DNA from: Gaiellaceae bacterium | GTDB taxonomy: Bacteria > Actinomycetota > Thermoleophilia > Gaiellales > Gaiellaceae | Assembly: GCA_035653115.1 (NCBI GenBank) | Contig: DASRCL010000005.1 | Span: 32,376-96,375 of the forward strand | Direction of reading: 5' to 3' | DNA: 64,000 bases | Part shown: piece by piece, positions 23,577 through 63,214 of the stretch | Layout: each line of letters begins with the position of its first letter | Numbering within the stretch: the first letter of the stretch is position 1 | Translations under genes and position numbers: made by a program | Notes under the pieces: model-generated | What the model saw: only the letters and a program-made list of their open reading frames with translations | Database searches by the model: none | Told to the model about the DNA's origin: nothing

Positions 23577-24782
23577 TCAGGGAGCGGCGGCTTCGATCCG
23601 GAGCGCGGCGGCGCCCTCGCTCGCGCGGCGCAGCGCGTCGTTCGCGTCGTCGCCCGTCGCGATCACGTAGCCGCGCCGGTCGGCGTCGACGCGCAGCGGA
23701 CCGATCTCCGCGCCGACGTCGAAGTAGAGGCCGACGTCGAGGACGCCGTCGCACGCGCGCGCGTCGTCGAGGCCGTCGATACGGGTCACCCGGCCGACGG
23801 GCAGGAAGCCCGGCGACGCCGTCAGGAACCGAATAGCGACCGGGCGGACGAACCGCGGCGTGATCAGCTCGTCGGGCACCGCGCGCCCGAGCGCCTGGGC
23901 GATCGCGACGTCGTAGAGGTCGATGCCGGTCGCGTGCAGGACGAGGTCGGCCATCTGCCCGGCCGCGATCCGCGCCGCCACCTCGACGACGACGACGCCG
24001 TCCGGGGTCGCGAGCAGTTGCGGGAACGCGATCCCGTCGCGCAGGCCGAGGCAGCGGATCGCGTCGGCGGCGACACGGTCCGCTTCCGCGAGGAGCTCGT
24101 CGGGCAGCGTCGAGGGGAAGCGGTGGATCCAGCCGACGCCGAAGCCGGCGCCGCCGGGGCGGAGGCGGTCGGAGAGCGTGAGGAGGGTCGGCTCGCCGTC
24201 GCGGACGACGTAGAGCGCGTTCAGCTCGTCGCCCGCGACGTACTCCTCGAGCAGCGCCTCCCCACGCTGCGAGAGCGCGATCGCCTCCGGGAGGACCTCC
24301 TCGAGCCCGTCGCGACGCTCCACGAGGAAGAGCCCGCGCTGGCCGCCCGAGTCGGCCGGCTTCAGCACCGCGGGGAACCGCAGCCCGTCGAGCTCGGCGA
24401 AGCCGTCCTCGGTCAGGACCGCATGGGGCGGCTGCGGGACGCCGCAGTCCGCGAGCCGCGCGCGCATCGTCGGCTTGTGCGTCATCCGGCGGGCGACCTC
24501 CGGCCCGATTCCGGGCAGCCCGCAGCGCTCGGCCACGCTCGCCGCCGGGACGACAGCACGGTCGGTGCAGACGGCGAGGACGCCGTCCACGCGCTCGCGC
24601 TCCGCGACGCGCGCGACCGCGTCGACGTCGCTGAAGTCGACGGCCTCGGCGACGTCGCAGAGCGCGAAGCCGGGTGCGTCGGGCGCCGCGTCGCAGGCGA
24701 CGACGCGATGGCCTGCGGCGCGCGCGCGCCGGATCCCGGCGAGCTGCGAGACGCTGGCTCCCAGGAAGAGGAGCGTTGCCAA
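23577..24782 (-). CDS. ATP-grasp domain ligase (paralogue 1)
   Basis: Contains LLFLGASVSQL, THKPTMRARLADCGVPQP, FPAVLKPADSGGQRGLFLV and GVGWIHRFPS. TTG start at 24782. Confidence 0.88.
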   Translation of the reverse strand: MATLLFLGASVSQLAGIRRARAAGHRVVACDAAPDAPGFALCDVAEAVDFSDVDAVARVAERERVDGVLAVCTDRAVVPAASVAERCGLPGIGPEVARRMTHKPTMRARLADCGVPQPPHAVLTEDGFAELDGLRFPAVLKPADSGGQRGLFLVERRDGLEEVLPEAIALSQRGEALLEEYVAGDELNALYVVRDGEPTLLTLSDRLRPGGAGFGVGWIHRFPSTLPDELLAEADRVAADAIRCLGLRDGIAFPQLLATPDGVVVVEVAARIAAGQMADLVLHATGIDLYDVAIAQALGRAVPDELITPRFVRPVAIRFLTASPGFLPVGRVTRIDGLDDARACDGVLDVGLYFDVGAEIGPLRVDADRRGYVIATGDDANDALRRASEGAAALRIEAAAP

Positions 24783-24883
24783 CCTCGCAGGACGGTACGC
24801 CGCGTCGTCTTACCGGTTGCTGAACGCGTCACGGCGGGGGCGGGCGGCGGCGGCGCGGGTTGTGGCGGGCGGGTCTCGCCCGG

Positions 24884-26257
24884 TCAGGAGGCGAGCGCGG
24901 GGTCGGAGGCGACGCGGAAGCGGATCGCCTGCGCGGCCTGCTCGGCGCGCTCGACGGCGTCGTCGCGCGAGGCGCCGGTGACGAGAACGGCTCCGGCCCG
25001 GTCGGCGCCGCGGCGGAGCGGCGTGAAGACGTAGCCGGGCGTGCGGTAGATGCGGACGCGTTCGAGCTCCGGCGGCACCTCGACGCCTTCGAACACGCCC
25101 GGCGGGGCGACGAGGAAGCGCGTGACCGCGCCGCCGACGCGGGCGACCGGGGTCGGCAGCGCAAGCGGGCGCCCGAGCGCGGCGTCGATCGCCAGGTCGT
25201 TGAGCGGCACGCCGGTCGCAGCCTCCACGAGCTCCGCGTCGTGGCCGCCCCCGAGCCGCGCCGCCACCTCGATCACCTTCGGCCCGTCCCCGTCGACACG
25301 CAGCTGCGTGTAGCTCGGCCCCTCGGTGATTCCGAGGGCAGCCACCGCTGCTCGGGCCACGTCTTGGCTCAGAGCCAGGACGTGGCCCGGCGAGCCAGTG
25401 GCCCGAGCGGCTCCGACGCCGTCGTTCGCGCGCGTAGTGCGGCTCGGAGCGGCAGAGGACGTCGCCTCCGCGGCCACGTCCCGGCCTGGAGGCTGGACAT
25501 GGTCCGTTGCCGCACCGGACGCGGCCGCTTCGGCCGCGTCCTGGCTCAGAGCCAGGACGCGGCTCGGCCAGACATGTGCGAGCGCGACGCCGAAGGCGGG
25601 CGGGTCGGCGACGACCCGGTCGGTGACGGCGAGCGCGGCGAAGCGGCCGCCGCCCGAGAAGCCGATCACCGTCACCTCCGGCCCGTCGACGAGCTCCTCG
25701 ACGAGCGCGAGGCCGTTTCGCGCCGCGCCGCGCGCGGTGGCGACCGCGCCCGCGAGATCGCCGCCCGGCAGCACGAGCGTGAGACCCTTCTGCCCCTGCC
25801 GGTCGGGCGCCTTCACCACCGCAGCCCCCGCCACGTCCGGCAGCGGGTCGCCGGCTCCGACGACCCACCAACGCGGCTGCGGCACGCCCGCCGCGGCGAG
25901 GCGCTCGCGCTGACGCAGCTTGTTCGTGGCGAGCACCGCCGCTTGCGGCGTGAGCGGATGCGGCAGCCCGAGCCGCTCCGCGACGCGCGCCGCGACCGCG
26001 ACCGGCCAGTCCGTCCCCGGCGCGACGAGCCCGCCGACGCCGAGCGCCGCCGCGAGCCGCTCGATCGCCGGCTCGTCCTCCGTCGAGAGGATGCAGCGCC
26101 GATCGGCGAGCGCGAATCCCGGCGCCGCCGGGTCACGGTCGACGACCGCCGTCCAGACACCGCGCGCCCGCGCCGCCTCGAGCAGGCCGAGCTGCGCCGG
26201 CCCCGCGCCTAGGACGAGTAGGCGCGGGCTTCGCGCGCGAGGATCGCCCTCCACCAC
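24884..26257 (-). CDS. ATP-grasp domain ligase (paralogue 2) carrying an in-frame 59-codon repeat-flanked insertion
   Basis: Contains LLVLGAGPAQL, TNKLRQRERLAAAGVPQP and AAVVKAPDRQGQKGLTLV. The ATP-grasp core is interrupted between HVWPSR and VLALSQDVARAAV by 59 low-complexity residues that the paralogues lack. The GTG start overlaps the rfbB stop by 49 nt. Confidence 0.8.
   Translation of the reverse strand: MVEGDPRARSPRLLVLGAGPAQLGLLEAARARGVWTAVVDRDPAAPGFALADRRCILSTEDEPAIERLAAALGVGGLVAPGTDWPVAVAARVAERLGLPHPLTPQAAVLATNKLRQRERLAAAGVPQPRWWVVGAGDPLPDVAGAAVVKAPDRQGQKGLTLVLPGGDLAGAVATARGAARNGLALVEELVDGPEVTVIGFSGGGRFAALAVTDRVVADPPAFGVALAHVWPSRVLALSQDAAEAAASGAATDHVQPPGRDVAAEATSSAAPSRTTRANDGVGAARATGSPGHVLALSQDVARAAVAALGITEGPSYTQLRVDGDGPKVIEVAARLGGGHDAELVEAATGVPLNDLAIDAALGRPLALPTPVARVGGAVTRFLVAPPGVFEGVEVPPELERVRIYRTPGYVFTPLRRGADRAGAVLVTGASRDDAVERAEQAAQAIRFRVASDPALAS
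25354..25563. repeat. palindrome-flanked repeat element, copy 1 (inside the ATP-grasp CDS)
   Basis: 25354..25388 is a 35-nt palindrome, GGGCCACGTCTTGGCTC-A-GAGCCAGGACGTGGCCC, with 1 mismatch. 25533..25563 is a perfect 31-nt palindrome, GCCGCGTCCTGGCTC-A-GAGCCAGGACGCGGC. Their centres are 177 nt apart. The internal sequence shares TGGACATGG, CCGTTGC and GCCGCTT(T)CGGCC blocks with 37234..37369. Confidence 0.75.
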
Positions 26258-27207
26258 GCCTCATTGTCGAGGTACCACGCGACGGTCCGAGCAAGCCCTT
26301 CGTCGATCGACGTGCGCGCGCGCCAGCCGAGCAGCCGCGCCGCCTTGTCCGTCGAGCCGATGTGGCGGTCGACCTGCCCCGGCCGCTCCGGAACGTGCTG
26401 CTTCAGGTCGGCAGGCTTGTCGAGCGCCTCGAGCACCTTGTCGGCGATCTCCGAGACGGAGATGTCGACGCCGGTGGCAACGTTGATCACCTCGCCCGCG
26501 AGCTCCTCGATCGGCGCCGCGATGATTGCCTCGATCGCCTCTGCGTCGTCGTCGACGTACAGCCAGTCGCGCGAGGCGTGGCCGTCGCCGTGGATCGTGA
26601 GCGGCTCGTCGGCGAGCGCCTGCGTGATGAAGCGCGGCACGACCTTCTCGGGGTGTTGGCGCGGGCCGTAGTTGTTGAACGGCCGCACGATCACGATCGG
26701 GAGCTCGTACGTCGTCCAGTACGAGTACGCGAGACGGTCGGCGCCGGCCTTCGTCGCCGCGTACGGCGAGCGCGGCTCGAGCGGGTGGTCCTCGTCCATC
26801 GGCGACTGCCGCGCCGTCCCGTACACCTCCGACGACGAGATGAGGATGAAGCGCTCGACCGGCGTCTCCCGGATCGCGTCCAGAAGGATCTGCGTCCCCT
26901 CGACGTTCGTCGTGACGAACTCGGACGCGCCGTACTCGATCGACTTCTCGACATGCGACTCGGCCGCCGCGTTGACGATCACGTCCACGCCGCCGACCAG
27001 CTCGCGCACGAGGCCCTCGTCGCGGACGTCGCCGTGCACGAACGACAGGCGCGGATGGCTGAGCACGTCGGCGAGGTTCTCGAGGTTGCCGGCGTACGTG
27101 AGCGCGTCGAGCGTGACGACCTCGTAATCCGTCGCGTCGAGCAGGTGCCGGATGAAGTTCGACGAGATGAATCCCGCCCCCCCGGTCACGAGAACCCGCC
27201 TGCTCAA
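26209..27207 (-). CDS. rfbB: dTDP-glucose 4,6-dehydratase
   Basis: Contains RRVLVTGGAGFISSNFIRHLL, YAATKAGADRL and NNYGPRQHPEKVVPRFI, a typical RmlB pattern. The TTG start forms a TTGA overlap with the upstream GT2 stop. Confidence 0.9.
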   Translation of the reverse strand: MSRRVLVTGGAGFISSNFIRHLLDATDYEVVTLDALTYAGNLENLADVLSHPRLSFVHGDVRDEGLVRELVGGVDVIVNAAAESHVEKSIEYGASEFVTTNVEGTQILLDAIRETPVERFILISSSEVYGTARQSPMDEDHPLEPRSPYAATKAGADRLAYSYWTTYELPIVIVRPFNNYGPRQHPEKVVPRFITQALADEPLTIHGDGHASRDWLYVDDDAEAIEAIIAAPIEELAGEVINVATGVDISVSEIADKVLEALDKPADLKQHVPERPGQVDRHIGSTDKAARLLGWRARTSIDEGLARTVAWYLDNEAWWRAILAREARAYSS

Positions 27208-28106
27208 AGCTCCTCCTCGATCGTGTACAACGGCCGTCCCTCGACGTTCCGCTGGATCCGTCCGAGCGACTCACCGATGAGCGCGAGGACGAACCCCTGG
27301 ATGCCGAGCACGAGCACTATGCCGACTCCCGCGAAGAGCGGCCCCGGGAAGTTGCTGTTCGCGACCCAGTAGACGAGCCCCCAGATCCCGATCGCGAACG
27401 CCGCGAGCGTGCACACGATCCCGAGCGTCACGCCGATCCACTGCACCGGCTGCGGCCAGAACCCGGCCACGACGTGCAGCGCGAGCCGGATCAGCCGCAG
27501 CGGGGAGTAGCGCGACCCCGAGCGCGCGGGGGCGTGCGCGACGTCCACCTCCTCGAACGAGACGCCGGACGACAGCACCAGCGCCTTCGTGAACTTCTGC
27601 CGGCCGATCGCGCCCAGCAGCGGCTCGACCGCCTCGCGGCGGTAGGCGTTGAAGGCGCAGCCGAAGTCGGAGATGCGGACGCCGGTGAAGCGCCGCAGCA
27701 GCCCGTTGATCGCGCGGCTCGGCAGCGTGCGGCCGGCCGAGTCGCGGCGCGCCACGCGACGTCCCGACGCCACGTCGACGCGTGTGAGCGCGTCGAGCAG
27801 CCTCGGGATGTCCTCCGGCTGGTTCTGAAGGTCGCCGTCCATCGTGACGATGCGGTCGCCGCGCGCGCGCACGAGCCCGGCGTGCATCGCCGGGTGCTGG
27901 CCGAAGTTGCGCTTGAACCGAACGACGCGGACGCGCGGGTCGCGCGCGTGCAGCGTCCGCAGCCGCGCGAACGTCTCGTCGGTCGAGCCGTCGTCGACGA
28001 AGATCGCCTCCCAGTCCGCACCGTCGAGGCTCGCGGCGATCCGCCGGTAGAGCTCGTCCACGGCGTGTTCCTCGTTCAGCAACGTCACGACGACCGAGAC
28101 GTCCAT
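27204..28106 (-). CDS. polyprenyl-phosphate glycosyltransferase (GT2, ArnC/GtrB/DPM1-like)
   Basis: Contains MDVSVVVTLLNEE, FVDDGSTDET, RNFGQHPA and MDGDLQNQPEDI. Two C-terminal TM helices follow. This is the architecture of ArnC/GtrB-type enzymes. Confidence 0.88.
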   Translation of the reverse strand: MDVSVVVTLLNEEHAVDELYRRIAASLDGADWEAIFVDDGSTDETFARLRTLHARDPRVRVVRFKRNFGQHPAMHAGLVRARGDRIVTMDGDLQNQPEDIPRLLDALTRVDVASGRRVARRDSAGRTLPSRAINGLLRRFTGVRISDFGCAFNAYRREAVEPLLGAIGRQKFTKALVLSSGVSFEEVDVAHAPARSGSRYSPLRLIRLALHVVAGFWPQPVQWIGVTLGIVCTLAAFAIGIWGLVYWVANSNFPGPLFAGVGIVLVLGIQGFVLALIGESLGRIQRNVEGRPLYTIEEEL

Positions 28107-28164
28107 CGGGTGCAGGCTAGTTCCTGCGGTACGAGCAGGTAAAAGCGAGCCTCAGGTCAAGGTC

Positions 28165-29286
28165 GTGGCTTTCGCGAGGACATATCGCGCGGCGCTCCCC
28201 ACCCTGTTCGGGTTCGTCGCGCTCGGCCTCTTCTGGGGCGCGTGGGCGTCGGTGCTCCCGAGCGTGCAGCGGGCGACGAACGTCTCCAAAGGGGCGCTCG
28301 GGTTCGCGCTGCTCTTCGTGACGGTCGGCTCGCTGCCGTCGATGTTCTTCCTGGCGCGACCGGCTGTCGACCGCTTCGGCGGCCGGACGGCGACCGTTTC
28401 GTGCGCATTGTTCGCCGCCGCAACGACGTTGCCAGGGTTGGCGACGTCACTCCCGGCCCTGGCCGGGACGCTCTTTCTCGCGGGCGCGGCGTCCGGAGCG
28501 CTCGACGTCGGCATCAACGCGAACGCGGCGGCGCTGGAGTCTGCAGAGAGCCGCCGGCTGATGCCGCTCGCGCACGGTCTCTACTCGGCCGGCGTGCTCC
28601 TCGGCGCGGTCGCCGCCGGGCTGGCACGCGCGGCGGGCGTGCACCGCGAGCCGATTCTGCTGGTCGTCGCCGCGGTCATCGCCCTCGCCGCGGCCCTGCT
28701 CGCACTCGACCGCCAGGCGGACCACGTGCTCGGCGCCGCGGCGGAGCCCGCGCCGCGGATCCGCATCCCGCGCGCGCTGCTCGCGATCGGCGCGGTCGGC
28801 GCCCTCGCGTTCATGATCGAGGGAGGAAGCGAGAGCTGGAGCGCGCTCTTCCTCGAGCGGCAGCTGCACGCTCACCCCGGAGTCAGCGGGCTCGGCCCCG
28901 GCGTCTTCGGTGCGTCGATGGCGGTCGGCCGCTTCTACGGGCAGGCGACGCGCTTCGGCGACCGCGCGCTGCTCGCCGGCGGCGCGCTCGTTGCGGCGGC
29001 CGGCTGTGCCGTCGTCGCGGGCGCGCCGGGGGCGTGGGCGGCGCTGCTCGGCCTCGCCCTGGCCGGAATCGGGATCGCGCTCAACGCGCCGATCCTGTTC
29101 GGCGCCGCGGGGCGCGTCGCCCCGAGCGCGGTCGCGACGGTGACGACGCTCGGCTACGTCGGGCTGCTCGTCGGGCCGCCGCTCGTCGGGGGCATCGCGC
29201 AGCTCACCAACCTCCGCGGGTCCTTCCTGCTCCTCGCCGCGGCGGCGGCCGGCGTCGCGGCCGCCGCCTCGAGGCTCCGGCTCTAG
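28165..29286 (+). CDS. MFS transporter
   Basis: 373 aa with about 12 hydrophobic helices throughout. GTG start. Confidence 0.8.
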   Translation: MAFARTYRAALPTLFGFVALGLFWGAWASVLPSVQRATNVSKGALGFALLFVTVGSLPSMFFLARPAVDRFGGRTATVSCALFAAATTLPGLATSLPALAGTLFLAGAASGALDVGINANAAALESAESRRLMPLAHGLYSAGVLLGAVAAGLARAAGVHREPILLVVAAVIALAAALLALDRQADHVLGAAAEPAPRIRIPRALLAIGAVGALAFMIEGGSESWSALFLERQLHAHPGVSGLGPGVFGASMAVGRFYGQATRFGDRALLAGGALVAAAGCAVVAGAPGAWAALLGLALAGIGIALNAPILFGAAGRVAPSAVATVTTLGYVGLLVGPPLVGGIAQLTNLRGSFLLLAAAAAGVAAAASRLRL

Positions 29287-30710
29287 GCTGCCCGCTCGAG
29301 CGCCGGCTCGAGCGCGGCGGACTCCGTCCGGACGCGCCGCACCCTGCCGATCGCGAACGCGGCGACGGCGCCGAGCGCGACCACCGCCGCGCCGATCCAG
29401 ACGGCGGCGTCCATGCCGTGGACGAACGTCTGGCCCGTCCGGTACCCGCCGTCGTGCGCGAAGACGGTCGCGAGCACCGCGACGCCGAAGACGCCCCCGA
29501 GCTCGCGGATCGCGTTGTTCACGCCGGAGGCCTGCCCTTCCTGCTCGCCGCGCACGCTCGACAGGACGACGTTCGCGATCGGCGCGAAGAACATCCCCAT
29601 GCCGGCGCCCGACACCGCGAAGGGGACGACGAGCGACCAGTAGCCGAGCGACGGCGTCGACACGGCGGCGATCCACGCGAGCCCAAGCGCCTGCAAGGCG
29701 AGGCCGGTGCCGATGATGCGGCTCGGCGGGATCCGGTCGGACAGCGCCCCGGCGACCGGCGCGACGATCATCGGCATGGCAGTCCACGGCAGGATCCGCA
29801 GCCCCGAGTTGAGCGGCGTCGCGTGCTGGACCGTCTGGAAGAACTGGGCGAGCAGGAACACCGACCCGAACATGCCGAAGCTCATCAGCAGCGACGCGAC
29901 GTTCGCCAGCGCGAACGTCCGGCGGCGGAAGAAGGCGATCGGCAGCATCGGGTGCTGGGCGCGCAGCTCCCAGGCGACGAACCCCGCGAGGACGGCCGCG
30001 CCGCCTGCGAGCGCCGCCACGACCTCCGCCGAGGTCCAGCCGACGGTGTTCGCGCGCACGAGGCCCCAGACGATCCCGAAGAGCCCGCCGCTCGCGAGCA
30101 GGAGGCCGCGCAGGTCGATGCGGCCGAAGGGCCCCGTGCTCTCGTCGAGGCGCGTGAGCGCGAGCGGCAGTAGCACGAGCCCGACCGGGACGTTCAGCCA
30201 GAAGACCCAGTGCCAGGAGATGCCGTCGACGACGGCGCCGCCGACCAGCGGCCCGAAGGCCACCGCAAGCCCGCTGATCCCGCCCCAGGCGCCGAGGAAG
30301 ACGCCGCGCCGCTCGGGCGGGACGGCGGCCGAGAGGATCGTCAGCGTGAGCGGCATGACGATCGCGCCGCCGACGCCCTGGACGGCACGCGCCGCATCGA
30401 GAACCCCGATCGTCGGCGCGAGCGCCGCGGCCGCGGAGGCGATGGTGAAGAGGCCGATGCCGAGCGCGAACAGGCGCCGCCGCCCGAACCGGTCGCCGAG
30501 CGCCGCACCCGTCAGGAGGAGCACGGCGAACGTCAGTGTGTAGGCGTTCACCGTCCATTCGAGACCGCTCAGCCCGGCGTGCAGGTCGCGGCGGATCACC
30601 GGGATCGCCGTCGTGACCACGAGGTTGTCGAGCGTGACCATGAAGAGCGCCGCGGAGGTGATCGCGAACGTCCACCAGCTACTCGAGCGCTTTTGTATGT
30701 GATTCATCAC
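29283..30710 (-). CDS. MFS transporter, DHA2 (EmrB/QacA) drug:H+ antiporter family
   Basis: Contains FMVTLDNLVVTTAIPVI, LEWTVNAYTLTFAVLLLTGAALGDRFGRRRLF (motif A) and about 14 TM segments. The start is GTG 30710 or ATG 30707. Confidence 0.9.
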   Translation of the reverse strand: MMNHIQKRSSSWWTFAITSAALFMVTLDNLVVTTAIPVIRRDLHAGLSGLEWTVNAYTLTFAVLLLTGAALGDRFGRRRLFALGIGLFTIASAAAALAPTIGVLDAARAVQGVGGAIVMPLTLTILSAAVPPERRGVFLGAWGGISGLAVAFGPLVGGAVVDGISWHWVFWLNVPVGLVLLPLALTRLDESTGPFGRIDLRGLLLASGGLFGIVWGLVRANTVGWTSAEVVAALAGGAAVLAGFVAWELRAQHPMLPIAFFRRRTFALANVASLLMSFGMFGSVFLLAQFFQTVQHATPLNSGLRILPWTAMPMIVAPVAGALSDRIPPSRIIGTGLALQALGLAWIAAVSTPSLGYWSLVVPFAVSGAGMGMFFAPIANVVLSSVRGEQEGQASGVNNAIRELGGVFGVAVLATVFAHDGGYRTGQTFVHGMDAAVWIGAAVVALGAVAAFAIGRVRRVRTESAALEPALERAA

Positions 30711-30739
30711 TTCCCTACTTGCGAAAAAAGTTCAGCGGA

Positions 30740-30765
30740 GTGAGGTATGGGTACCCATACCTCAC
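30740..30765. promoter_or_regulatory. perfect 26-nt palindrome: candidate TetR operator, or a hairpin between tetR and the MFS gene
   Basis: GTGAGGTATGGGT/ACCCATACCTCAC is a perfect palindrome and is AT-rich for this genome. It overlaps the last 4 nt of the TetR ORF and ends 29 nt upstream of the MFS start. On the transcribed strand it is followed 10 nt later by TTTTTT. Confidence 0.5.
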
Positions 30766-31307: not shown

Positions 31308-31316
31308 GGCGAGAGG

Positions 31317-33328: not shown

Positions 33329-33351
33329 GCGGCGAAGGTTAGCTTTGGCGC

Positions 33352-34290
33352 GTGGACCCTCGGGCACGGGCGGAAACCGCGCGCGCGGTCGAGGCGGCCC
33401 CAGTCGCCGGCGGACCGCTCAAGCGGCGGCTCGCGCGCGCGGCGGAGCCGCTCGCGCGAGCGCAGCGCGCGTTCAACGACGCGATCCTCGCTGTCTCCGA
33501 CGCGCTCTCGGAGCGGATCGACGACGCGTCCGCGCGCGCCGCGGCGGCCGAGCGGCGCGTACGCGAGCTCGAGGAGCGGCTGCTGCGGCTCGAGCGCCGC
33601 GCCGGCGACGCACCACGCACCGTCGCGGCGCAGCCGCGGCAGGACGCGCTGCCGGATTACTTCGTCTACGAGTCGCGCATGCGGGCGCCTGCTGCGGAGG
33701 TGCGCGAGCGGCAGCGCCCCTACGTCGAGCTGCTGCGCGGGCGCGCTCCGGTGCTCGACGTCGGCTGCGGACGCGGGGAGCTGCTCGCACTGCTGCGCGA
33801 GGCGGGGATCGAGGCCCGCGGCGTGGACGCGGACGCGGACATGGTCGCGTTCGCGCGCGGCGACGGGCTCGCGGTCGAGCAGCAGGACCTTTTCGAGGCG
33901 CTGGCCGACGCACATGATCTCGGGGCGATCACGGCGCTGCAGGTCGTCGAGCACCTGCCGCCGCCGCTGCTCGGGCGCTTCCTGGAGCTTGCGCGCGCGG
34001 CGCTGCGCCCCGGCGGCCTGCTCGTCGCCGAGACGATCAACCCGGCGACGCCCGCGGCGCTGCGGCACTACTTCGCCGACCTGACGCACGCCCAGCCGCT
34101 CGTCCCCGAGACGCTCGAGCTACTCGTCCGCCATGCGGGCTTCCGCGAGGTCGAGATCCGCTGGCTCAACGCGCCGCCGCCGCACGACGACGAGCGGATC
34201 ACCGCGCAGCTCTTCGCGCCGCTCGACTACGCCATTGTCGCGCGGCCTGACGTCCGCCGCCGCCCGGCCGCGCCACGGCCGCCGCAGTAG
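33352..34290 (+). CDS. class I SAM-dependent methyltransferase with N-terminal coiled-coil
   Basis: SAM motif I VLDVGCGRGELL, plus LVAETINP. The N-terminal ~90 aa are heptad-like (ERRVRELEERLLRLERR). The exact start is uncertain. Confidence 0.82.
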   Translation: MDPRARAETARAVEAAPVAGGPLKRRLARAAEPLARAQRAFNDAILAVSDALSERIDDASARAAAAERRVRELEERLLRLERRAGDAPRTVAAQPRQDALPDYFVYESRMRAPAAEVRERQRPYVELLRGRAPVLDVGCGRGELLALLREAGIEARGVDADADMVAFARGDGLAVEQQDLFEALADAHDLGAITALQVVEHLPPPLLGRFLELARAALRPGGLLVAETINPATPAALRHYFADLTHAQPLVPETLELLVRHAGFREVEIRWLNAPPPHDDERITAQLFAPLDYAIVARPDVRRRPAAPRPPQ

Positions 34291-34300
34291 CATCGCGCGG

Positions 34301-35512
34301 GTGGCGAAGACCGTCCTCTTCGTCGGCGCGGGCCGCCACCAGCAGCGTGCGATCGCGCAGGCGAAGGAGATGGGACTTCGCGTCGCCGCCGTCGACGGCG
34401 ACGCGGAGGCGCCGGGACTGCGGGAAGCCGACGTCGCGAAGGTGGTCGACTTCTCGGACGTCGAGGCGGTGCTCAAGGCGACCGCGCGGCTGAAGCTCGA
34501 CGGCGTGCTGACGGTCAGCGCCGACCGCGCCGTGCCGGTCGTCGCGGCGATCGCCGAAGCGCGGGGGCTTCCCGGCATCGGCACGAGCACCGCGCATTTG
34601 ATGACGCACAAGGTCGCGATGCGGCGGCGGCTCGCCGAGGCCGGCGTGCCGCAGCCGCGGTTCGCGGCGATCCGGACGATGTCGGAGCGCCGGCGCGCGG
34701 CCGACGAGGTCGGCTTCCCCGCGGTGTTGAAGCCCGCCGACTCGGGCGGCCAGCGCGGCGTCTTCCGCGTCGACTCGCTCGACGACGTCGAGGCCCACCT
34801 CCACGAGGCGCTGATCGCGTCCCCGACCGGCGAGGCGATCCTCGAGGAGTTCGTCGACGGCACGGAGATGAACGGCATCGTCCTCGCGCGGCGCGGCGAC
34901 GCGATCCCGCTCACGCTTTCCGACCGGCTACGGCCCCCGGGGATCGGCTTCGGCGTCGGCTGGATCCACGTCTACCCGGCGTCCGTGTTCGGCGACCAGC
35001 TCGAGCTGGCGGAGCGCGTCGCGGTGCACACCGTGCACGCGCTCGGGCTCGCGACCGGCATCGCGTTCCCGCAGCTGATCGCGACGGCGGACGGCCGCGT
35101 CGTCGTGGTCGAGTGCGCCGCCCGCATTCCGGGCGGGCAGATGGCCGACCTGGTGCGATTCGCGGTCGGCGTCGACCTCGTCGAGCTGCAGATCCGGATA
35201 GCGCTCGGCGAGGAGCTCCCCGACGAGCTCGTGCGGCCAAAGTTCTCGCAGCCGCTCGCGATCCGGTTCCTCACGGCTCAGCCCGGCCCCCTGCCGACGG
35301 GCCGCGTCAAGCGCGTGGGGCCGCTCGATAAGGTGCTTGCATTTCCGGGAGTGGTGCAGGCGGAGAGCTACCTGCAGGTGGGCGAGACGATCCGCCCCGT
35401 GCGGCTCGACGGCGACCGGCGCGGCTACGTGATCGCGACCGCGGAGACCAGCATCGAAGCGCTCGAGCGCGCCGAGGCGGCCGCGCGGCTCCTCGACGTG
35501 GAGGTCGAGTGA
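34301..35512 (+). CDS. ATP-grasp domain ligase (paralogue 3)
   Basis: GTG 34301. Contains VAKTVLFVGAGRHQQ, THKVAMRRRLAEAGVPQP, FPAVLKPADSGGQRGVFRV and GVGWIHVYPAS. It is very similar to 23577..24782. Confidence 0.88.
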   Translation: MAKTVLFVGAGRHQQRAIAQAKEMGLRVAAVDGDAEAPGLREADVAKVVDFSDVEAVLKATARLKLDGVLTVSADRAVPVVAAIAEARGLPGIGTSTAHLMTHKVAMRRRLAEAGVPQPRFAAIRTMSERRRAADEVGFPAVLKPADSGGQRGVFRVDSLDDVEAHLHEALIASPTGEAILEEFVDGTEMNGIVLARRGDAIPLTLSDRLRPPGIGFGVGWIHVYPASVFGDQLELAERVAVHTVHALGLATGIAFPQLIATADGRVVVVECAARIPGGQMADLVRFAVGVDLVELQIRIALGEELPDELVRPKFSQPLAIRFLTAQPGPLPTGRVKRVGPLDKVLAFPGVVQAESYLQVGETIRPVRLDGDRRGYVIATAETSIEALERAEAAARLLDVEVE

Positions 35513-36177
35513 CTCGTCCGGCGGAGGCGCTCGCCGCAGCCTGCGACTTCTCGCTCGAGCACTACCGCGAGCTGCTCCGGGCCGCCCGCGCCGGCGGCTA
35601 CCGGTGGGCCGGCTTCGACCGGCCGCCGCAGCCCGGCGACCTGCTCCTGCGCCACGACGTCGACCTGTCGCTCGACGCCGCGCTCGTGCTCGCGGAGGTG
35701 GAGGCCGACGAGGGCGCGTGGTCGACGTGGTTCCTGATGACGCGGTCGGTCTTCTACAACCTCGCCTCGGAGCCGGGCGAGCGCGCGGTCGCGCGGCTGC
35801 GCGAGCTCGGTCATCGCGTCGCGCATCACGCCGTGTACCCGCACGTCGACCTCGACGAGCGCTTCGACCGCGTCTTCGCGTGGCACAACCCCGACCCGTC
35901 GTGGATGCACTCGAACGTCGACGGCGCCGTCAACGTGATGGCGCCGCCGTTCTTCGACCCGGCGCGCTACCGCTCGGACTCGAACCACCGGTGGCGGAAC
36001 GGCTGCCCGCACGACGCGCTCGCGCGCGGCGAGTTCGACTGGCTGCAGCTGCTGACGCACCCGGAGATCTGGGCGTTCGACGGCGCGACGATGCGCGAGA
36101 CGATGGAGTCGATGCTCGAGCACGACCGCGCGGTGCGGCTCGAGCACCTGCGGCAGGACCGGATCGACCTCACGTGA
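35509..36177 (+). CDS. hypothetical protein, tentatively polysaccharide-deacetylase-like
   Basis: The GTG start forms a GTGA overlap. LLLRHDVDLSLDAALVLAEVEADEGAWSTWFLM resembles the HDVD-type N-terminus of deacetylase-fold proteins. His-rich stretches are present (HRVAHHAVYPH). The assignment is tentative. Confidence 0.5.
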   Translation: MTRPAEALAAACDFSLEHYRELLRAARAGGYRWAGFDRPPQPGDLLLRHDVDLSLDAALVLAEVEADEGAWSTWFLMTRSVFYNLASEPGERAVARLRELGHRVAHHAVYPHVDLDERFDRVFAWHNPDPSWMHSNVDGAVNVMAPPFFDPARYRSDSNHRWRNGCPHDALARGEFDWLQLLTHPEIWAFDGATMRETMESMLEHDRAVRLEHLRQDRIDLT

Positions 36178-36190
36178 CTACCGTGGCGGC

Positions 36191-37240
36191 GTGAAGCCGA
36201 TCACGGTGCTGGTGAGCGCGGCGGGCGCGCCCGGAACCGCGGCGCTACTGCGCGCGCTGCGCTCGAACGGCGAGCGCGACGTGCGGCTCGTCGGCACCGA
36301 CATGAGCGACCGCTCGGTCGGCCGGCATCTCTGCGACGCGTTCCACCGCGTCCCGGCCGGGTCGGATCCCGCGTTTCCGGACGCGATGCTCGACGTCGCG
36401 ACACGAGAGCGGGTCGACGCGATCCTGCCCCAGTCGTCCTTCGACCTCGCCGGCCTCGCCGAGCACGTCAACCGGTTCCCGATGCCGGTGCTCGTCTCGA
36501 GCCCCGACACGATCCGGCGCTCAAACGACAAGGCGGAGACGTACGAGCTACTGCACCGGCTCGGCGTCCCGGCGCCGCGGTTCAGGCGCGTGAACGGCGG
36601 ACACGCAGTCGCGGCCGCAGCGGAGGAGCTCGGCTACCCGGAGCGGCCGGTGTGCTTCAAGCCGGTCTTCTCGTCGGGCTCGCGCGGCTTTCGGATCCTC
36701 GACGCGTCCGTCGACCGCGCGCACCAGCTGTTGCACGAGCGGCCGGGATCGGTGGCGATGCGGCTCGACGAGGCGGTCGAGCTGCTGCCGCCGGAGGGCG
36801 GCCCGGACCTGCTCGTGATGGAGCTCGCGACCGGCGGCGAGCGCACGGTCGACGGCATCGCCGACCGGCGCTCCGTCGTGCTCGGGCATCCGAAGACGCG
36901 CGAGGCGATGCGCGCGGGGCTCGCGATGTACTTCGTCACGCTCGAGGACGCCGAGCTGATGCGGCTCGCGGACGTGATCGTCTGCGAGCTCGGCATCGAG
37001 CACTTCTTCAACATCCAGCTCGTCGGCGAGCACGTGATCGAGATCAATCCGCGCATCTCGACGATCGTCTACCAGGAAGACCTCAACCTGCCGTACCTCG
37101 GCGTCAAGCGCGCGCTGGGCGAGATCTCCGACGACGAGCTGCGCGCGTACGCGACTCGCGTCCGCCCGGGCCGAACCGCGCTGCGCTACTTCGACCAGCT
37201 CGAGTTCGACACGTCCCCGCGGGCCATGGACGTGCTCTGA
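36191..37240 (+). CDS. ATP-grasp domain ligase (paralogue 4, CPSase-large-subunit-like / PylC-like subtype)
   Basis: Contains MKPITVLVSAAGAPGTAALLRAL, NDKAETYELLHRLGVPAP, PVCFKPVFSSGSRGFRIL and IEINPRIS. Confidence 0.85.
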   Translation: MKPITVLVSAAGAPGTAALLRALRSNGERDVRLVGTDMSDRSVGRHLCDAFHRVPAGSDPAFPDAMLDVATRERVDAILPQSSFDLAGLAEHVNRFPMPVLVSSPDTIRRSNDKAETYELLHRLGVPAPRFRRVNGGHAVAAAAEELGYPERPVCFKPVFSSGSRGFRILDASVDRAHQLLHERPGSVAMRLDEAVELLPPEGGPDLLVMELATGGERTVDGIADRRSVVLGHPKTREAMRAGLAMYFVTLEDAELMRLADVIVCELGIEHFFNIQLVGEHVIEINPRISTIVYQEDLNLPYLGVKRALGEISDDELRAYATRVRPGRTALRYFDQLEFDTSPRAMDVL

Positions 37241-37369
37241 GCCAGGACATGGCTCGTTTGGACATGGAGCCCGATCCTGCCGTGGCGGCCGTTGCGTCCC
37301 GGCGGCGGCCTGCATCACACGCCCAATTGCCGCTTTCGGCCCTGGCCGGGCTCTGAGCCAGGACATGGC
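37234..37369. repeat. palindrome-flanked repeat element, copy 2 (intergenic; duplicates the stop/start junction)
   Basis: GCTCTGAGCCAGGACATGGC occurs exactly at 37234..37253 and at 37350..37369, a 116-nt offset. The first copy contains the TGA stop of the ATP-grasp gene. The second contains the ATG of the next gene. The interior shares sequence blocks with 25354..25563. Confidence 0.75.
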
Positions 37370-38297
37370 GCTTCGGGTCACGCACTGCCCCGTCAACATC
37401 GCCGGCATCCCGTGGGAGAACGTGCAGGCGCTGCGGCGGAAGGGCGTCGACGCGCGGCTCGTCGTCTTCAACCGCGGCCGCCTGCATCCCGAGGCCGACT
37501 GGAGCCTCGACCGCCACGGCCCGCTGCCGCAGCGGCTCGCGCAGCAGGCCGCGGCGTTCGCGCGGCTGGCGCCGCGCACCGACGTCTTCCACTTCTACTT
37601 CGGCCTGACGCTGCTGCCGAAGTCCGTCCAGTTCCCGCTCCTCCGCGCGCTGCGCAAGAAGAGCGTCTTCCACTACCTCGGCTCCGACATCCGCGGCAAG
37701 CCGCGTGCCGAGCTCGCCTACGGCGAGCGAGCGGACGCGGAGATCGTCGGCTCCTACGACGCGCAGCGCTGGGTGCCGCACGCGCACGTCGTCCCGCCTG
37801 GCCTCGACCTGCGGCCGTTCGCGCCGGTGCCGCCGTCCGACAGCCCGCGTCCGCTCGTCGTGCACGCGCCGTCGAACCGCGAGAAGAAGGGGACGGAGCA
37901 CGTCATCGACGCGTGCGCCCGGCTGTCGGTCGAGCTCGACGTCGTCGAGGGCGTGCCGCACGACGAGGCGCGCGCGCGTTACGCCCGCGCGGACATCGTC
38001 GTCGACCAGCTCTACGCGGGCTGGCACGGTGTGTTCGCGCTCGAGTGCATGGCGCTCGGCAAGCCGGTCGTGACCTACCTGAAGCCGGACGTCGTGGAGC
38101 GAAGCGCGGAGGGCTACGGCATGCGGATTCCGATCGTGCCGGCGACGAAGGAGACGCTCGTCGACGCGCTCCGCCCGCTCGTCGAACGGCCGGCGCTGCG
38201 CCGGGAGCTCGGCGCGGCCGGGCGTGCATACGTCGAGCAGGTGCACGACATCGACCGGATCGCCGACCGCCTGCTGGACGTCTACCGTTCGCTGTAG
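37365..38297 (+). CDS. GT-B-like glycosyltransferase (paralogue of 5403..6485)
   Basis: Contains MALRVTHCPVNIAGIPWENV, TDVFHFYFG, LVVHAPSNREKKGTEHV and DQLYAGWHGVFALECMALGKPVV. Confidence 0.8.
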   Translation: MALRVTHCPVNIAGIPWENVQALRRKGVDARLVVFNRGRLHPEADWSLDRHGPLPQRLAQQAAAFARLAPRTDVFHFYFGLTLLPKSVQFPLLRALRKKSVFHYLGSDIRGKPRAELAYGERADAEIVGSYDAQRWVPHAHVVPPGLDLRPFAPVPPSDSPRPLVVHAPSNREKKGTEHVIDACARLSVELDVVEGVPHDEARARYARADIVVDQLYAGWHGVFALECMALGKPVVTYLKPDVVERSAEGYGMRIPIVPATKETLVDALRPLVERPALRRELGAAGRAYVEQVHDIDRIADRLLDVYRSL

Positions 38298-39731
38298 ATG
38301 CGGCTCGGCCACGAGCTGAAGCGCCTGGGGCGCCACTCCGCGATCTACGGGTTGGGCGGGCTCGTCTCGCGGATCCTCGCGACGATCCTGCTGCCCCTGT
38401 ACACGCACTACCTGCCGCCGGGGGCATACGGCCGCGTCGAGATCGTCACCGCCGCGACGGCCGTGCTCGCGATCGTGCTGCAGCTCGGGATCTCGAGTGC
38501 ATTCTTCCGCTTCTACTTCGACACGAACGAGCCGGTCGAGCGGTTGACCGTCGTGCGCACCTCGTTCTGGTTCACGATGGCGAGCGCGACGATCGGCCTC
38601 GCCGCCGGCCTGGTGTTCGCGGCGCCGCTCGGCCACTGGCTCGGCCTCGGGCACGACCCGACGCTCGTCCGCGCCGGCGCAGTCGGTCTCTGGGCGCAGA
38701 CGAACTACCAGCAGCTGACGAACCTCTTCCGCGCGGAGGAGCGCTCGACGTCGTACGCGCTGGCGAGCCTCGCGAACGTGCTGATCACCGTCGCGGCGAT
38801 GGTCGTGTTCGTCGCCGTATTCCACTGGGGCGCCGTCGGTCTCGTCGCCGGCAACTTCACCGGCACGCTGGTCGTCTACGTCGTCCTGCTCGCGTACCGG
38901 AACGAGCAGCTCGGCCTCGAGTTCGACCGGCGGCTGTTCCGGCGCATGCAGCACTTCGGGATGCCGCTCGTCCCGTCGGCGCTCGCGCTGTGGGTGATCA
39001 ACTTCGTCGACCGCGAGTTCGTCGTGTGGTACTGGGGCAAGAAAGAGGTCGGCGTCTACTCCGCGGCGGTGAAGATCGCCGGCGTCATCACGTTCGTGAT
39101 GATCGCGTTCCGGACCGCGTGGCCCGCCTTCGCGTACTCGATCGAAGACGACCGCGAGGCCCGGCGGACGTATGCGTTCGTGCTGACGTACCTGCTCGTG
39201 TTCGCGTCGTGGGTCGCGCTCGCGCTCGGCGCGCTCGCGCCGTGGTGGACGGCGCTGCTGACCGCGCCGGACTACCAGCGCGCGGCGAAGGGGATCGCGC
39301 TACTCGCGTTCGCGGGCGCGGTCTACGCGGGCTACACCGTGCTCGCGATCGGCAGCGGCCGCGCGCGCAAGACGCAGCTGAACTGGGTCGTCACGGGCGT
39401 CGGCGCGGCGGCGAACGTCGGACTCAACTTCTGGCTCATCCCGCGCTGGGGGATGGTCGGCGCGGCGATCTCGACGCTGGCGTCGTACGTCGTGCTGTTC
39501 GTCGGCATGACGCTGTACGCGCAGCACGTCTACCCGGTGCCGTACCAGTGGCGCCGCGTCGTGACCGCGGTCGGCGCTGCGGTCGGGCTCGACGTCGCGG
39601 CGCGCGCGGCGAGCCTTCCGTTCGCGCCCTCGCTGCTTCTCGTCGCCGCGTACCCGCTCGCGCTGGCCCTGCTCGGCTTCTACCTACCGGCAGAGCGGCA
39701 GCGGCTGCGGCGACTCGTTCCCAGTCTCTAG
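38298..39731 (+). CDS. wzx: polysaccharide biosynthesis protein, Wzx-type (MOP superfamily) flippase
   Basis: The ATG directly abuts the preceding TAG. 477 aa with about 12-14 TM segments. The N-terminus SAIYGLGGLVSRILATILLPLYTHYL..YG is typical of Wzx / polysaccharide-synthesis flippases. Confidence 0.82.
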   Translation: MRLGHELKRLGRHSAIYGLGGLVSRILATILLPLYTHYLPPGAYGRVEIVTAATAVLAIVLQLGISSAFFRFYFDTNEPVERLTVVRTSFWFTMASATIGLAAGLVFAAPLGHWLGLGHDPTLVRAGAVGLWAQTNYQQLTNLFRAEERSTSYALASLANVLITVAAMVVFVAVFHWGAVGLVAGNFTGTLVVYVVLLAYRNEQLGLEFDRRLFRRMQHFGMPLVPSALALWVINFVDREFVVWYWGKKEVGVYSAAVKIAGVITFVMIAFRTAWPAFAYSIEDDREARRTYAFVLTYLLVFASWVALALGALAPWWTALLTAPDYQRAAKGIALLAFAGAVYAGYTVLAIGSGRARKTQLNWVVTGVGAAANVGLNFWLIPRWGMVGAAISTLASYVVLFVGMTLYAQHVYPVPYQWRRVVTAVGAAVGLDVAARAASLPFAPSLLLVAAYPLALALLGFYLPAERQRLRRLVPSL

Positions 39732-48367: not shown

Positions 48368-48384
48368 AGCCGCGTTCCTCCGCC

Positions 48385-62807: not shown

Positions 62808-62836
62808 AAGCGAACCTTATCCGGGCGATGGCGAGG

Positions 62837-63208: not shown

Positions 63209-63214
63209 CGCGCC

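Follow-up and report, generated by a model that had tools for sequence, protein, structure and literature searches.

The locus and its genes

The window examined here is a 64-kb stretch of Gaiellaceae (Thermoleophilia) DNA in which four genes for ATP-grasp ligases, AG1 to AG4, lie among genes for the assembly of an envelope glycan (Table 1). Since its high G+C content, 72-75% from about 12 kb onward, fills raw lists of open reading frames (ORFs) with artefacts, genes were called through their third-position GC content (GC3 plot). Pfam gathering scores and NCBIfam equivalog cut-offs served as family thresholds, while structural relatives were sought through PDB profile searches and Foldseek. 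An earlier reading of the letters alone (the sequence-only reading) had proposed the four ligase ORFs, and all of them show a strong GC3 coding signal at the positions listed in Table 1. The coupled junctions that it reported, GTGA at 35509 and TTGA at 27207, can both be read directly in the DNA. Its choice of neighbours is likewise borne out by Pfam and NCBIfam: rfbB, an ArnC-like GT2 glycosyltransferase, two DegT aminotransferases, SDR proteins, a methyltransferase and a Wzx flippase are all present. That gene list was nevertheless incomplete, omitting two MFS transporters and a TetR regulator in mid-locus, of which the second transporter (MFS2) and TetR are conserved. The AsnB-type gene to which it referred does exist, at 231..2168, but outside the range that it gave.

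Between 11 and 40 kb nearly every gene serves glycan assembly, and other parts of the locus lie at 49-51 kb and 62.8 kb. Wzx (Polysacc_synt, 83 bits), two Wzy_C proteins (42.5 and 50.1 bits), glycosyltransferases of the GT2, GT4 and GT1 families, a flippase-like protein, the ArnC-like GT2 and a Bac_transf phosphoglycosyl transferase (PGT) together make up a Wzx/Wzy-dependent locus, as the earlier designation of a glycan locus requires. The PGT lies 23 kb from Wzx in the window; in two related loci, L059 and L068, it is found inside the locus. The arrangement is not the product of chance, recurring as it does across dozens of related genomes, and the locus is a conserved Gaiellaceae envelope-glycan locus of Wzx/Wzy type. 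Domain scans found neither a hexapeptide or GNAT N-acetyltransferase nor a UDP-sugar 6-dehydrogenase (UDPG_MGDP_dh) in the 64-kb window.

Family and fold of the ATP-grasp proteins

AG1, AG2 and AG3 each match LAL_C2 (PF18603), the C-terminal domain of the L-amino-acid ligases (LALs), well above its gathering score of 29.4 bits (scores in Table 1); AG4 has no LAL_C2 match. ATP-grasp profiles are also matched above threshold by AG1 (CPSase_L_D2, 31.5 against 19.8 bits) and AG3 (CPSase_L_D2, 47.7 bits; ATP-grasp, 33.7 bits). AG2 reaches ATP-grasp_4 at a sub-threshold score only, and aligns over its full length with AG1 and AG3. AG4 matches ATPgrasp_Ter (39.6 against 29.1 bits), ATP-grasp_3 (27.4 against 23.2 bits) and PylC-like_N, its best NCBIfam model being the uncharacterised PRK12767 'CPSase-like protein' (E 8.7e-24, below cut-off), and against the PDB it yields only weak carbamoyl-phosphate synthetase matches. 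The subfamily assignment called for by the sequence-only reading therefore gives three LAL-type proteins, AG1 to AG3, and one distant, small 'CPSase-like' ATP-grasp, AG4.

Identity is 53% between AG1 and AG3, 40% between AG1 and AG2, and around 31% over aligned columns for AG4. Five residues, K103, K141, E180, E267 and R271 in AG1 numbering, of the Lys, Glu and Arg set that binds nucleotide and Mg in ATP-grasp enzymes, are invariant in the alignment of all four. The motifs that had been described as shared by the first three, PAVLKPADSGGQRG and GVGWIH, are exact in AG1 and AG3 but diverged in AG2, where they read AAVVKAPDRQGQKG and GVALAH. AG2 also carries an imperfect internal tandem duplication of 177 nt (59 codons; 25347-25421 against 25524-25598, the copies being 75% identical), which encodes an Ala/Ser-rich insertion flanked by a repeated VLALSQD motif and at which the GC3 signal dips. 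The duplication has no counterpart in orthologues, that of L005 being around 59 residues shorter.

The best solved relatives of AG1 by sequence are 4DIM and BL00235 (3VOT), with E-values as in Table 1, followed by carbamoyl-phosphate synthetase and BacD. The AlphaFold (AF2) model of AG3 gave 725 PDB matches at E <= 0.001 in Foldseek, and the best 50 listed are all ATP-grasp proteins. Its best superposition is on the LAL BL00235 (3vot), with a TM-score of 0.85-0.86 and a root mean square deviation of 2.8-3.1, while the lowest Foldseek E-value, 1.6e-32, belongs to 4DIM. TM-scores for BacD and RizA are 0.78 and 0.75, with PurT and PurK nearly as close at 0.78-0.80.

None of the four proteins reaches an NCBIfam equivalog cut-off. 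The scores of AG3 fall far below the cut-offs for PurT (68.8 against 339), PurK (44.5 against 318), PurD (39.7 against 288), biotin carboxylase (43.8 against 768) and Ddl (41.6 against 246), and those of AG1, AG2 and AG4 for such housekeeping models are lower still. An established purine or biotin-carboxylase role had been named as what would overturn the sequence-only reading; with these scores and the glycan context, the proteins stand as carboxylate-amine ligases outside those roles. That they might be housekeeping PurK, PurT, PurD, biotin carboxylase or Ddl enzymes lying in the locus by chance is suggested by database labels, JGI describing homologues as 'biotin carboxylase' and 4DIM having been deposited as a GAR synthetase. 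With equivalog scores several-fold under the cut-offs, no purine or fatty-acid genes as neighbours, and conserved synteny with glycan genes, we consider the likelihood of this negligible.

Conservation across the Gaiellaceae

A pattern scan of one genome per species found more than 510 AG relatives, from which the best 80 loci were taken. These come almost entirely from metagenome-assembled genomes (MAGs) assigned to Gaiellales, Gaiellaceae, Thermoleophilia or unclassified Actinomycetota, with one labelled Acidobacteriota. Homologues of AG1 number in the thousands, and those with a source name derive from Gaiellaceae MAGs. Every window protein was compared with the related loci by tblastn; counts refer to 87 loci scanned (L001-L087), of which 57 carry an AG3-type match, and the ligase tree was built by neighbour-joining.

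AG3 orthologues in the 57 loci are 60-83% identical and lie in a conserved order, MFS-TetR-DegT2-SDR2 facing, across a variable slot, AG3-Unk222-(AG4)-GT1-Wzx. The survey of co-occurrence that had been proposed as a check was run and found Unk222 in 54 loci, SDR2 in 53, GT1 in 51, Wzx in 46, DegT2 in 44, TetR in 42, MFS2 in 37 and AG4 in 35 of the 57. The second Wzy_C protein (Wzy2) is present in 27 loci and a 320-residue protein with a transmembrane segment and FlgD-Ig domain (the TM-Ig protein) in around 25 AG3-type loci, the pair lying a few kb downstream of Wzx. Three old orthologous groups are evident from tree and synteny, so that the first three ligases, which had been called close paralogues, are not close recent copies of one another.

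Wherever RfbB and DegT1 are both visible in a locus, a member of the AG2 group fills the slot between them. AG4 tracks the module composed of the ArnC-like GT2b, RfbB, AG2 and DegT1: both are present in 15 loci, neither in 7, AG4 only in 2 and the module only in none (Fisher's exact p = 1e-4, uncorrected for phylogeny). Members of the AG1 group, on the other hand, are mostly solitary, and the window AG1 is nested inside that group together with a 78% identical relative that shares its synteny (L004-L007). AG1 and the adjacent DLH-like hydrolase gene are thus a lineage-specific insertion in the RfbB-DegT1 module. The density of ligases, which had been thought unusual, is ordinary for this clade, whose loci normally hold two or three; four occur only in the window's lineage, through recruitment of AG1.

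The slot between SDR2 and AG3 differs between genomes, holding a methyltransferase in the window and in only two or three other loci, and split transketolase-like genes or a multi-gene block elsewhere. Such variability is typical of surface-glycan loci. The block in L059 (2.9-10.0 kb) and L068 (3.1-10.0 kb) encodes a GT87 protein, an SSI-like secreted protein, a weakly ATP-grasp-like protein, a GT4, the Bac_transf PGT, a FemAB/Acetyltransf_6-like protein and a GT2. Its FemAB-like gene would represent a second, tRNA-dependent route to peptide substituents.

A membrane-anchored clade of ligases

Most proteins of the AG1 clade are 510-650 residues long and consist of a cytoplasmic LAL ligase, an Arg-rich linker, one hydrophobic or transmembrane segment and one or two FlgD-Ig-like domains; long examples are P0014, P0056 and P0009, and the loci concerned are L001, L002, L010, L015, L020, L023 and L032. 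The window AG1 is a tail-less member of this clade. The window TM-Ig protein is 37% identical to the tail of the long ligase P0014 (E 7e-30), and the fusion of ligase and tail links the solitary AG1 clade to the same envelope machinery.

All-against-all clustering of the neighbours of solitary AG1-type genes revealed a CysN-like GTPase in 7 of 26 loci and no other recurrent neighbour among them. In the window, the genes next after Wzy2 and the TM-Ig protein (51449-58643, minus strand) form a sulphur block: a TauE sulphite exporter, CysN, CysD, CysH and ComA (phosphosulfolactate synthase), with class-I fumarase-like alpha and beta subunits and an FAD flavoprotein. The same order of sulphur genes lies directly beside an AG-type ligase in L026 (11.9-19.9 kb) and L035 (4.0-12.0 kb). 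That a sulphonated acid feeds the glycan is speculation.

Unk222, a putative deacetylase coupled to AG3

The gene for Unk222 (222 residues) overlaps that of AG3 by GTGA, an arrangement of translational coupling. The protein matches no Pfam or NCBIfam family, although it has more than 5,900 close homologues, with 3,404 cluster representatives at E <= 1e-3 in a 50%-identity library. In an alignment of 37 sequences with a mean identity of 34%, H49, D50, Y83, H107, H126, P128, L182 and H184 are invariant and D52 and H102 nearly so. Unk222 alone, or as a shallow profile, reaches only E 0.05-0.25 against the PDB. With a diverse profile nearly all matches are CE4 deacetylases, the best being 7BLY at E 9.4e-4 and around 20 more following at up to E 0.7. 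The top Foldseek match of the Unk222 model (pLDDT 70) is WbmS (3hft), a deacetylase-like protein of an O-antigen locus, at E 0.02 and a TM-score of 0.25, which is not significant. Unk222 shares with CE4 (NodB) proteins and WbmS the logic of the D-x-D, H-x4-H and L-x-H motifs, but its His spacing differs from the canonical H-S/T-x-x-H and the E-values are marginal.

Among the relatives of Unk222, P0375 (L088) is fused to an LpxD-like hexapeptide N-acyltransferase and lies beside a Methyltransf_23 gene; P0243 (L089) is fused to a LAL ligase in the same conserved locus; and a distant member in L093 lies beside WbpA/B/D/E-like diamino-sugar genes in a Wzx/Wzy locus. The absence of a signal peptide and of any predicted transmembrane segment makes a cytoplasmic location probable for Unk222, whose substrate would then be a sugar linked to a nucleotide or a lipid, not the polymer. 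Lipid A and mycothiol biosynthesis each place a deacetylase before an N-acylating enzyme, in the pairs LpxC/LpxD and MshB/MshC. By analogy, the simplest reading of Unk222 is a cytoplasmic sugar de-N-acetylase that would hand a free amine to an N-acylating enzyme.

A parallel in Firmicutes capsule loci

4DIM, from Anaerococcus prevotii, bears the PDB name 'phosphoribosylglycinamide synthetase'. With residues 10-306, rebuilt from the alignment, as query, orthologues were located in Anaerococcus and Lacrimispora within unmistakable capsule loci (L096-L099). The gene order is LytR-CpsA-Psr (LCP), a PglF-like Polysacc_synt_2 dehydratase, DegT, a LAL-type ATP-grasp, a small Bac_transf PGT, a second LAL-type ATP-grasp (the 4DIM orthologue), GT1, GT2, Wzy, LicD, Wzz and a tyrosine-kinase-like ATPase. 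The bacillosamine-type pathway is laid out as PglF, PglE, PglD and PglC, and by analogy the Firmicutes layout is that of a bacillosamine-type pathway in which two ATP-grasp ligases occupy the position expected for the PglD acetyltransferase. The name under which 4DIM was deposited is almost certainly wrong.

The strongest argument that the amine acceptor of these ligases is an amino sugar comes from this comparison, because the triad of dehydratase, aminotransferase and LAL-type ligase is found in two distant phyla. Within the Gaiellaceae locus, too, each LAL-type ligase sits beside a 4,6-dehydratase/aminotransferase pair.

A proposed pathway and its alternatives

In LAL, PurT and PurK enzymology a small acid is activated and the amine is on the second substrate, a ribonucleotide in the case of PurT and PurK. 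From the gene families, synteny, fusions and fold class described above we infer substrates, an order of steps, an acyl donor and a polymer as follows. AG1 to AG3 would convert a small carboxylic acid (an amino acid most probably) into its acyl-phosphate and pass the acyl group to the amine of the amino-deoxy sugar that the neighbouring dehydratase/aminotransferase pair produces, the sugar being linked to a nucleotide (or a lipid); they would so take the place of the acetyl-CoA-dependent N-acetyltransferase of classical pathways. In the core module SDR2 and DegT2 would produce an amino sugar and AG3 would acylate its (4-)amine; Unk222 would free a second amine by de-N-acetylation, which AG4, where present, may acylate unless it extends the first substituent; and the methyltransferase would tailor the product. 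Assembly and export of the unit would fall to the GT1-like enzyme, Wzx, Wzy2 and the TM-Ig protein. The second module, composed of RfbB, DegT1, AG2 and AG1, may provide a second acylated 4-amino-6-deoxyhexose, which the ArnC-like GT2 would attach to polyprenyl phosphate; once flipped, this sugar would be added on the outer side of the membrane, as happens in the Ara4N pathway, perhaps by the candidate Mem612 (Table 1).

As judged from sequence and gene order, this scheme, in which LAL-type ligases N-acylate amino sugars, most probably with amino acids, is in our view slightly more probable than not. The amide-decorated amino sugars foreseen in the sequence-only reading are favoured by the triads, the coupled Unk222 and the Firmicutes parallel. 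Four ligases had also been taken to suggest several successive amide bonds, but they could equally act on different amines or on different sugars. Precedent for the products is available: N-acetyl-D-alanyl-Qui3N and hydroxybutyryl-L-alanyl-Qui4N are known glycan components, to go by titles in the reference list of PMC8074265, and in Clostridioides difficile the peptidylamido sugar of flagellin depends genetically on an ATP-grasp (PMC5207246).

Several points weigh against the scheme. From similarity of fold, a donor such as formate, bicarbonate or a hydroxy acid cannot be told from an amino acid. The nearest relatives of AG1 (55-69% identity) are mostly solitary genes outside glycan loci, so that the main role of the AG1 clade may be a different one. 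The CE4 assignment of Unk222 is based on weak scores (a profile E-value of 9.4e-4, and a Foldseek E-value of 0.02 for a model of pLDDT 70), and the fusion of an AG3-type ligase to Unk222 could stem from a single wrong base in the assembly, given the GTGA overlap of the two genes. The window scans showed no sugar nucleotidyltransferase. The conserved MFS and TetR genes in the locus would be more at home in a small-molecule cluster, and the heparinase II/III-like gene and AsnB hint at uronic acids somewhere in the polymer.

The question of donor leads to the possibility that the ligases do N-acylate amino sugars, but through PurT/PurK-like chemistry with formate, carbonate or carbamate, a hydroxy acid or a sulphonated acid such as sulfolactate. 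AG3 aligns with PurT at E 3.5e-19, PurK models are matched as well, and the TM-scores of both enzymes with the AG3 model are near the LAL values; a hydroxyacyl donor would accord with the 3-hydroxybutanoyl group common at N-4 of bacillosamine (PMC8074265). A sulphonated donor is brought to mind by the sulphur block adjoining Wzy2 and the TM-Ig protein in the window and AG-type ligases in L026 and L035, and by the CysN-like genes that follow solitary AG1-type genes in 7 loci; this link, however, is positional only and confined to a minority of loci. Against such donors in general are the LAL_C2 matches of AG1 to AG3, the PurT and PurK scores so far under their cut-offs, and the best structural match, which is to the LAL BL00235. 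We regard this as rather unlikely.

The acceptor could alternatively be the C6 carboxylate of a uronic acid, amidated with amino acids or amines after the manner of the C-terminal domain of Cj1438 in the Campylobacter jejuni capsule. An ATP-grasp has been shown to amidate glucuronic acid (GlcA) in a capsule (PMC11800379), GalNAcA joined to amino acids through amide bonds occurs for instance in Providencia rustigianii O11 (a title in the reference list of PMC8074265), and the wider region offers the heparinase II/III-like gene and the AsnB-type amidotransferase. Yet none of the four proteins has a match to the TupA-like ATP-grasp profile of Pfam at E <= 0.01, and every LAL-type ligase, in Gaiellaceae and Firmicutes, is paired with an aminotransferase and not with a dehydrogenase. 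With the UDP-sugar dehydrogenase absent from the window scans as well, the uronic-acid option of the sequence-only reading gains no direct support and is disfavoured; we deem it improbable. A similarly low standing is given to the notion that the product of the core module is no polymer decoration but a small glycoconjugate, soluble or anchored to a lipid, such as an aminoacyl-aminosugar resembling mycothiol or bacillithiol and built by glycosyltransferase, deacetylase and ligase in that order, or else a free dipeptide exported by the MFS transporters. Glycosyltransferase, deacetylase-like protein, ligase and methyltransferase do mirror the logic of MshA, MshB, MshC and MshD, the GT1-like protein weakly matches MshA and a GlcNAc-PG synthase, MFS2 and TetR are conserved, and the characterised LALs (3vot, RizA, BacD) make free dipeptides. 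These points are outweighed by the conservation of Wzx, Wzy and PGT genes, with Wzx in 46 loci, Wzy2 downstream and PGTs in or near the loci; furthermore, the Firmicutes parallel is a capsule locus complete with LCP, Wzy, Wzz and a tyrosine-kinase-like ATPase, and the tailoring slot varies as in serotype loci. A secondary-metabolite cluster of aminoglycoside or peptidyl-nucleoside type, a candidate raised by the MFS and TetR genes, was rejected as primary explanation given the conservation of Wzx, Wzy, glycosyltransferases and PGTs with the ligases.

Relation to known systems

O-antigens, capsules and flagellin glycans offer well-documented cases of aminoacyl- and peptidyl-amino sugars. We know of no biochemically defined enzyme that attaches the aminoacyl or peptidyl group to the amino sugar, nor did the literature searched provide one; a search on ATP-grasp proteins in O-antigen and uronic-acid contexts, on the Gaiella cell wall and on archaeal AglU gave nothing usable, and no description of Gaiellaceae envelope glycans was found in it. 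AglU of M. maripaludis, considered as a possible precedent for an ATP-grasp that attaches threonine, is accordingly given no weight here. The LALs BL00235 (3VOT), RizA (4WD3) and BacD-YwfE (3VMM) share with AG1 to AG3 the three-domain ATP-grasp fold, the LAL_C2 domain and the expected reaction type, carboxylate-amine ligation through an acyl-phosphate, at an identity of only around 17-22%. However, they make free dipeptide antibiotics in small-molecule clusters, while the genes for AG1 to AG3 lie among those for sugar dehydratase and aminotransferase, glycosyltransferases and Wzx, on which account their amine acceptor is probably an amino sugar. The 4DIM family, the closest in solved structures both by sequence (to AG1) and by Foldseek E-value (to the AG3 model) though only around 20% identical, has LAL_C2 and two paralogues in a polysaccharide locus beside a 4,6-dehydratase and DegT. 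Its Firmicutes loci differ in their PglF-like membrane dehydratase and small PglC-like PGT, and in lacking Unk222, AG4 and the ArnC-like module.

The C-terminal domain of Cj1438 (C. jejuni HS:2), the one glycan amidoligase whose biochemistry is defined, is, like the AG proteins, an ATP-grasp of a surface-polysaccharide locus that adds an amide-linked substituent to a sugar: it activates the C6 carboxylate of GlcA and adds serinol-P or ethanolamine-P (PMC11800379). It belongs to another, TupA-like subfamily, and the sugar provides the carboxylate, whereas in the Gaiellaceae the sugar would provide the amine. The C. difficile type B flagellin cluster (CDR20291_0244-0247) brings together an ATP-grasp, an FdtB-like aminotransferase and a FemAB-like gene, and the terminal peptidylamido sugar is missing from a mutant in the ATP-grasp (PMC5207246). 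A FemAB-like and an additional ATP-grasp-like gene are likewise present in some Gaiellaceae loci; the C. difficile system makes a protein O-glycan and no Wzx/Wzy polymer.

In the Arn (Ara4N) pathway, lipid loading is preceded by a transient N-acylation (formylation) of the amine. The window similarly has an ArnB-like aminotransferase, an ArnC-like GT2, and flippase-like and large polytopic membrane proteins side by side, but an RfbB-like 4,6-dehydratase supplies the precursor in place of ArnA and ATP-grasps stand where the formyltransferase would be. DegT1 stays below the ArnB equivalog cut-off (Table 1) and GT2b below that of ArnC (169 against 529 bits), and no ArnA, ArnD or ArnT model is matched; the resemblance is architectural only.

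Other genes of the window

Table 1. Genes of the window discussed in the text, with their positions, strands and supporting evidence
Feature	Position	Strand	Evidence and remarks
Two SDR epimerase/dehydratase genes	11036-12013, ~12016-13080	+	Pfam Epimerase E 4e-43, 3e-43; GC3 frames; left edge of high-GC glycan locus
Heparinase II/III-like protein	13083..14468	-	Pfam Hepar_II_III_C E 4.5e-37; syntenic in L004
GT4, Wzy_C polymerase/ligase-like, GT4	14465-~15460, 15460-~16770, 16758-~18020	-	Pfam; starts approximate
Mem612, 612-residue membrane protein, ~12 transmembrane segments	18002..19840	-	Hydropathy; weak DUF6541 match
GT2 (GT2a)	19837-20712	-	Pfam Glycos_transf_2 E 2e-25
LPG_synthase_TM flippase-like protein (LPG_TM)	20705-~21700	-	LPG_synthase_TM E 1.3e-34; TIGR00374
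DegT1 sugar aminotransferase	21682..22800	-	Pfam DegT E 3e-109; best NCBIfam models ArnB, PseC; ArnB 314 bits against 631
Secreted DLH-like alpha/beta hydrolase	22827..23573	+	Pfam DLH E 4e-7; N-terminal signal-like peptide
AG1, LAL-type ATP-grasp	23577..24782	-	LAL_C2 66.2 bits; 4dim E 3.9e-20; 3vot E 2e-12
AG2, diverged LAL-type ATP-grasp	24884..26257	-	LAL_C2 50.6 bits; RfbB-DegT1 slot
RfbB-like NDP-hexose 4,6-dehydratase	26209..27207	-	TIGR01181 E 3e-100, 335 bits against cut-off of 365; Pfam
ArnC/PgfS-like GT2 (GT2b)	27204..28106	-	NCBIfam ArnC E 1.3e-49, PgfS E 2e-42, both below cut-off
MFS transporter	28165-29286	+	Pfam
MFS transporter (MFS2)	29283-30710	-	Pfam; conserved in locus
TetR regulator	30762-31307	-	Pfam; conserved in locus
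DegT2 aminotransferase, PseC-like	31317-32393	-	Pfam; NCBIfam PseC 265 bits, below cut-off
SDR2, extended SDR/4,6-dehydratase-like	32360-33367	-	Pfam; NCBIfam dTDP-glucose dehydratase 158 bits, below cut-off
SAM methyltransferase in variable tailoring slot	33352..34290	+	Methyltransf_23 E 1.8e-18
AG3, core LAL-type ATP-grasp	34301..35512	+	LAL_C2 60.7 bits; AF2 model pLDDT 92
Unk222, putative sugar de-N-acetylase	35509..36177	+	No Pfam/NCBIfam match; remotely CE4-like; GTGA-coupled to AG3
AG4, small ATP-grasp	36191..37240	+	PylC-like_N / ATPgrasp_Ter / 'CPSase-like PRK12767' type
GT1/GT4-like glycosyltransferase (GT1)	37365-38297	+	Pfam Glycos_transf_1 E 2.4e-7
Wzx/MOP flippase	38298-39731	+	Pfam Polysacc_synt E 2.9e-23
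Second Wzy_C protein (Wzy2)	49017-50519	-	Pfam
TM-Ig protein, 320 residues, transmembrane segment + FlgD-Ig	50471-51433	-	Pfam
Bac_transf PGT, candidate initiating enzyme	62828..63886	+	Pfam Bac_transf E 1.1e-53

At the left of the locus the order GT4-Wzy_C-GT4 is repeated in L004 at 83-88% identity. Mem612, which has no NCBIfam match, is kept beside GT2a and LPG_TM in 8 loci and is a candidate extracytoplasmic glycosyltransferase (GT-C type). The ArnC model aligns with GT2b over its full length and the protein has two C-terminal transmembrane helices, its gene overlapping rfbB at the TTGA junction; from these sequence features GT2b is a probable polyprenyl-phosphate sugar synthase. The DLH-like hydrolase is confined to L001 and L003-L007 among the 87 loci, its gene lying directly upstream of a long AG1-type gene in L001, and may serve as an esterase or amidase on the glycan outside the cytoplasm. 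A role as cytoplasmic ArnD-like deacylase, also considered, is ruled out by its signal peptide and lineage specificity.

Two gene starts call for comment. The AG3 ORF is open upstream to 34133, but orthologues and the methyltransferase stop at 34290 favour the GTG codon at 34301. The longest ORFs of the divergent SDR2 and methyltransferase genes share 16 bp at their 5' ends (33352-33367), so that at least one true start probably lies further in.

After Wzx come two conserved proteins without Pfam matches (39728-41368, minus strand), syntenic in the closest loci L053, L054, L081 and L083: one of 193 residues with a signal or transmembrane segment and a C-terminal transmembrane anchor, the other of 342 residues with a TAT-like N-terminus and possibly a beta-propeller. 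Adjoining Wzy2 are a PIG-L (LmbE/MshB-type) de-N-acetylase and a Zincin_1 metallopeptidase-like protein (48029-49080, minus strand), the former being a candidate further deacetylase for the same glycan system.

Upstream of the locus, the block from 2200 to 10900 has a G+C content of 63-65%, against 72-75%, and a weak GC3 signal. An rRNA operon was considered for this region (2.2-10.9 kb) and ruled out, since a scan of the whole window at Rfam gathering thresholds gave no match and the block encodes glycan proteins, namely GT4s, a Polysacc_synt_2 dehydratase that seems truncated, and a Wzm/Wzt ABC exporter bearing a Wzt_C domain. The block has the look of a second glycan pathway gained by horizontal transfer. 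The AsnB-type amidotransferase gene lies just upstream of it.

Implications

A wider proposal can be put forward tentatively, and we would give it somewhat less than an even chance: that LAL-type ligases form a cross-phylum class of sugar N-aminoacyl or peptidyl transferases, found in Gaiellaceae and Firmicutes, which replaces PglD/WbpD in 4-amino-6-deoxyhexose pathways; that the CE4-like Unk222 serves to swap acetyl for amino-acid-derived groups, possibly methylated or sulphonated, on a family-wide glycan; and that the TM-Ig fusion couples synthesis of the substituent to export and assembly. If true, a class of LAL-type 'sugar aminoacyl ligases' would allow such decorations to be predicted from genomes, misleading labels would be corrected ('biotin carboxylase', and 'GAR synthetase' for PDB 4DIM), and ATP-dependent biocatalysts for the N-acylation of nucleotide sugars would become available. 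The Unk222 family is a target for curation as a candidate new deacetylase family of glycan loci.

Gaiellaceae are abundant, almost uncultured soil actinobacteria. Judging by their genes, their surface sugars probably carry amino-acid-like side groups, and a family-wide locus with a variable tailoring slot offers a natural starting point for studying the Gaiellaceae surface and its interaction with phages.

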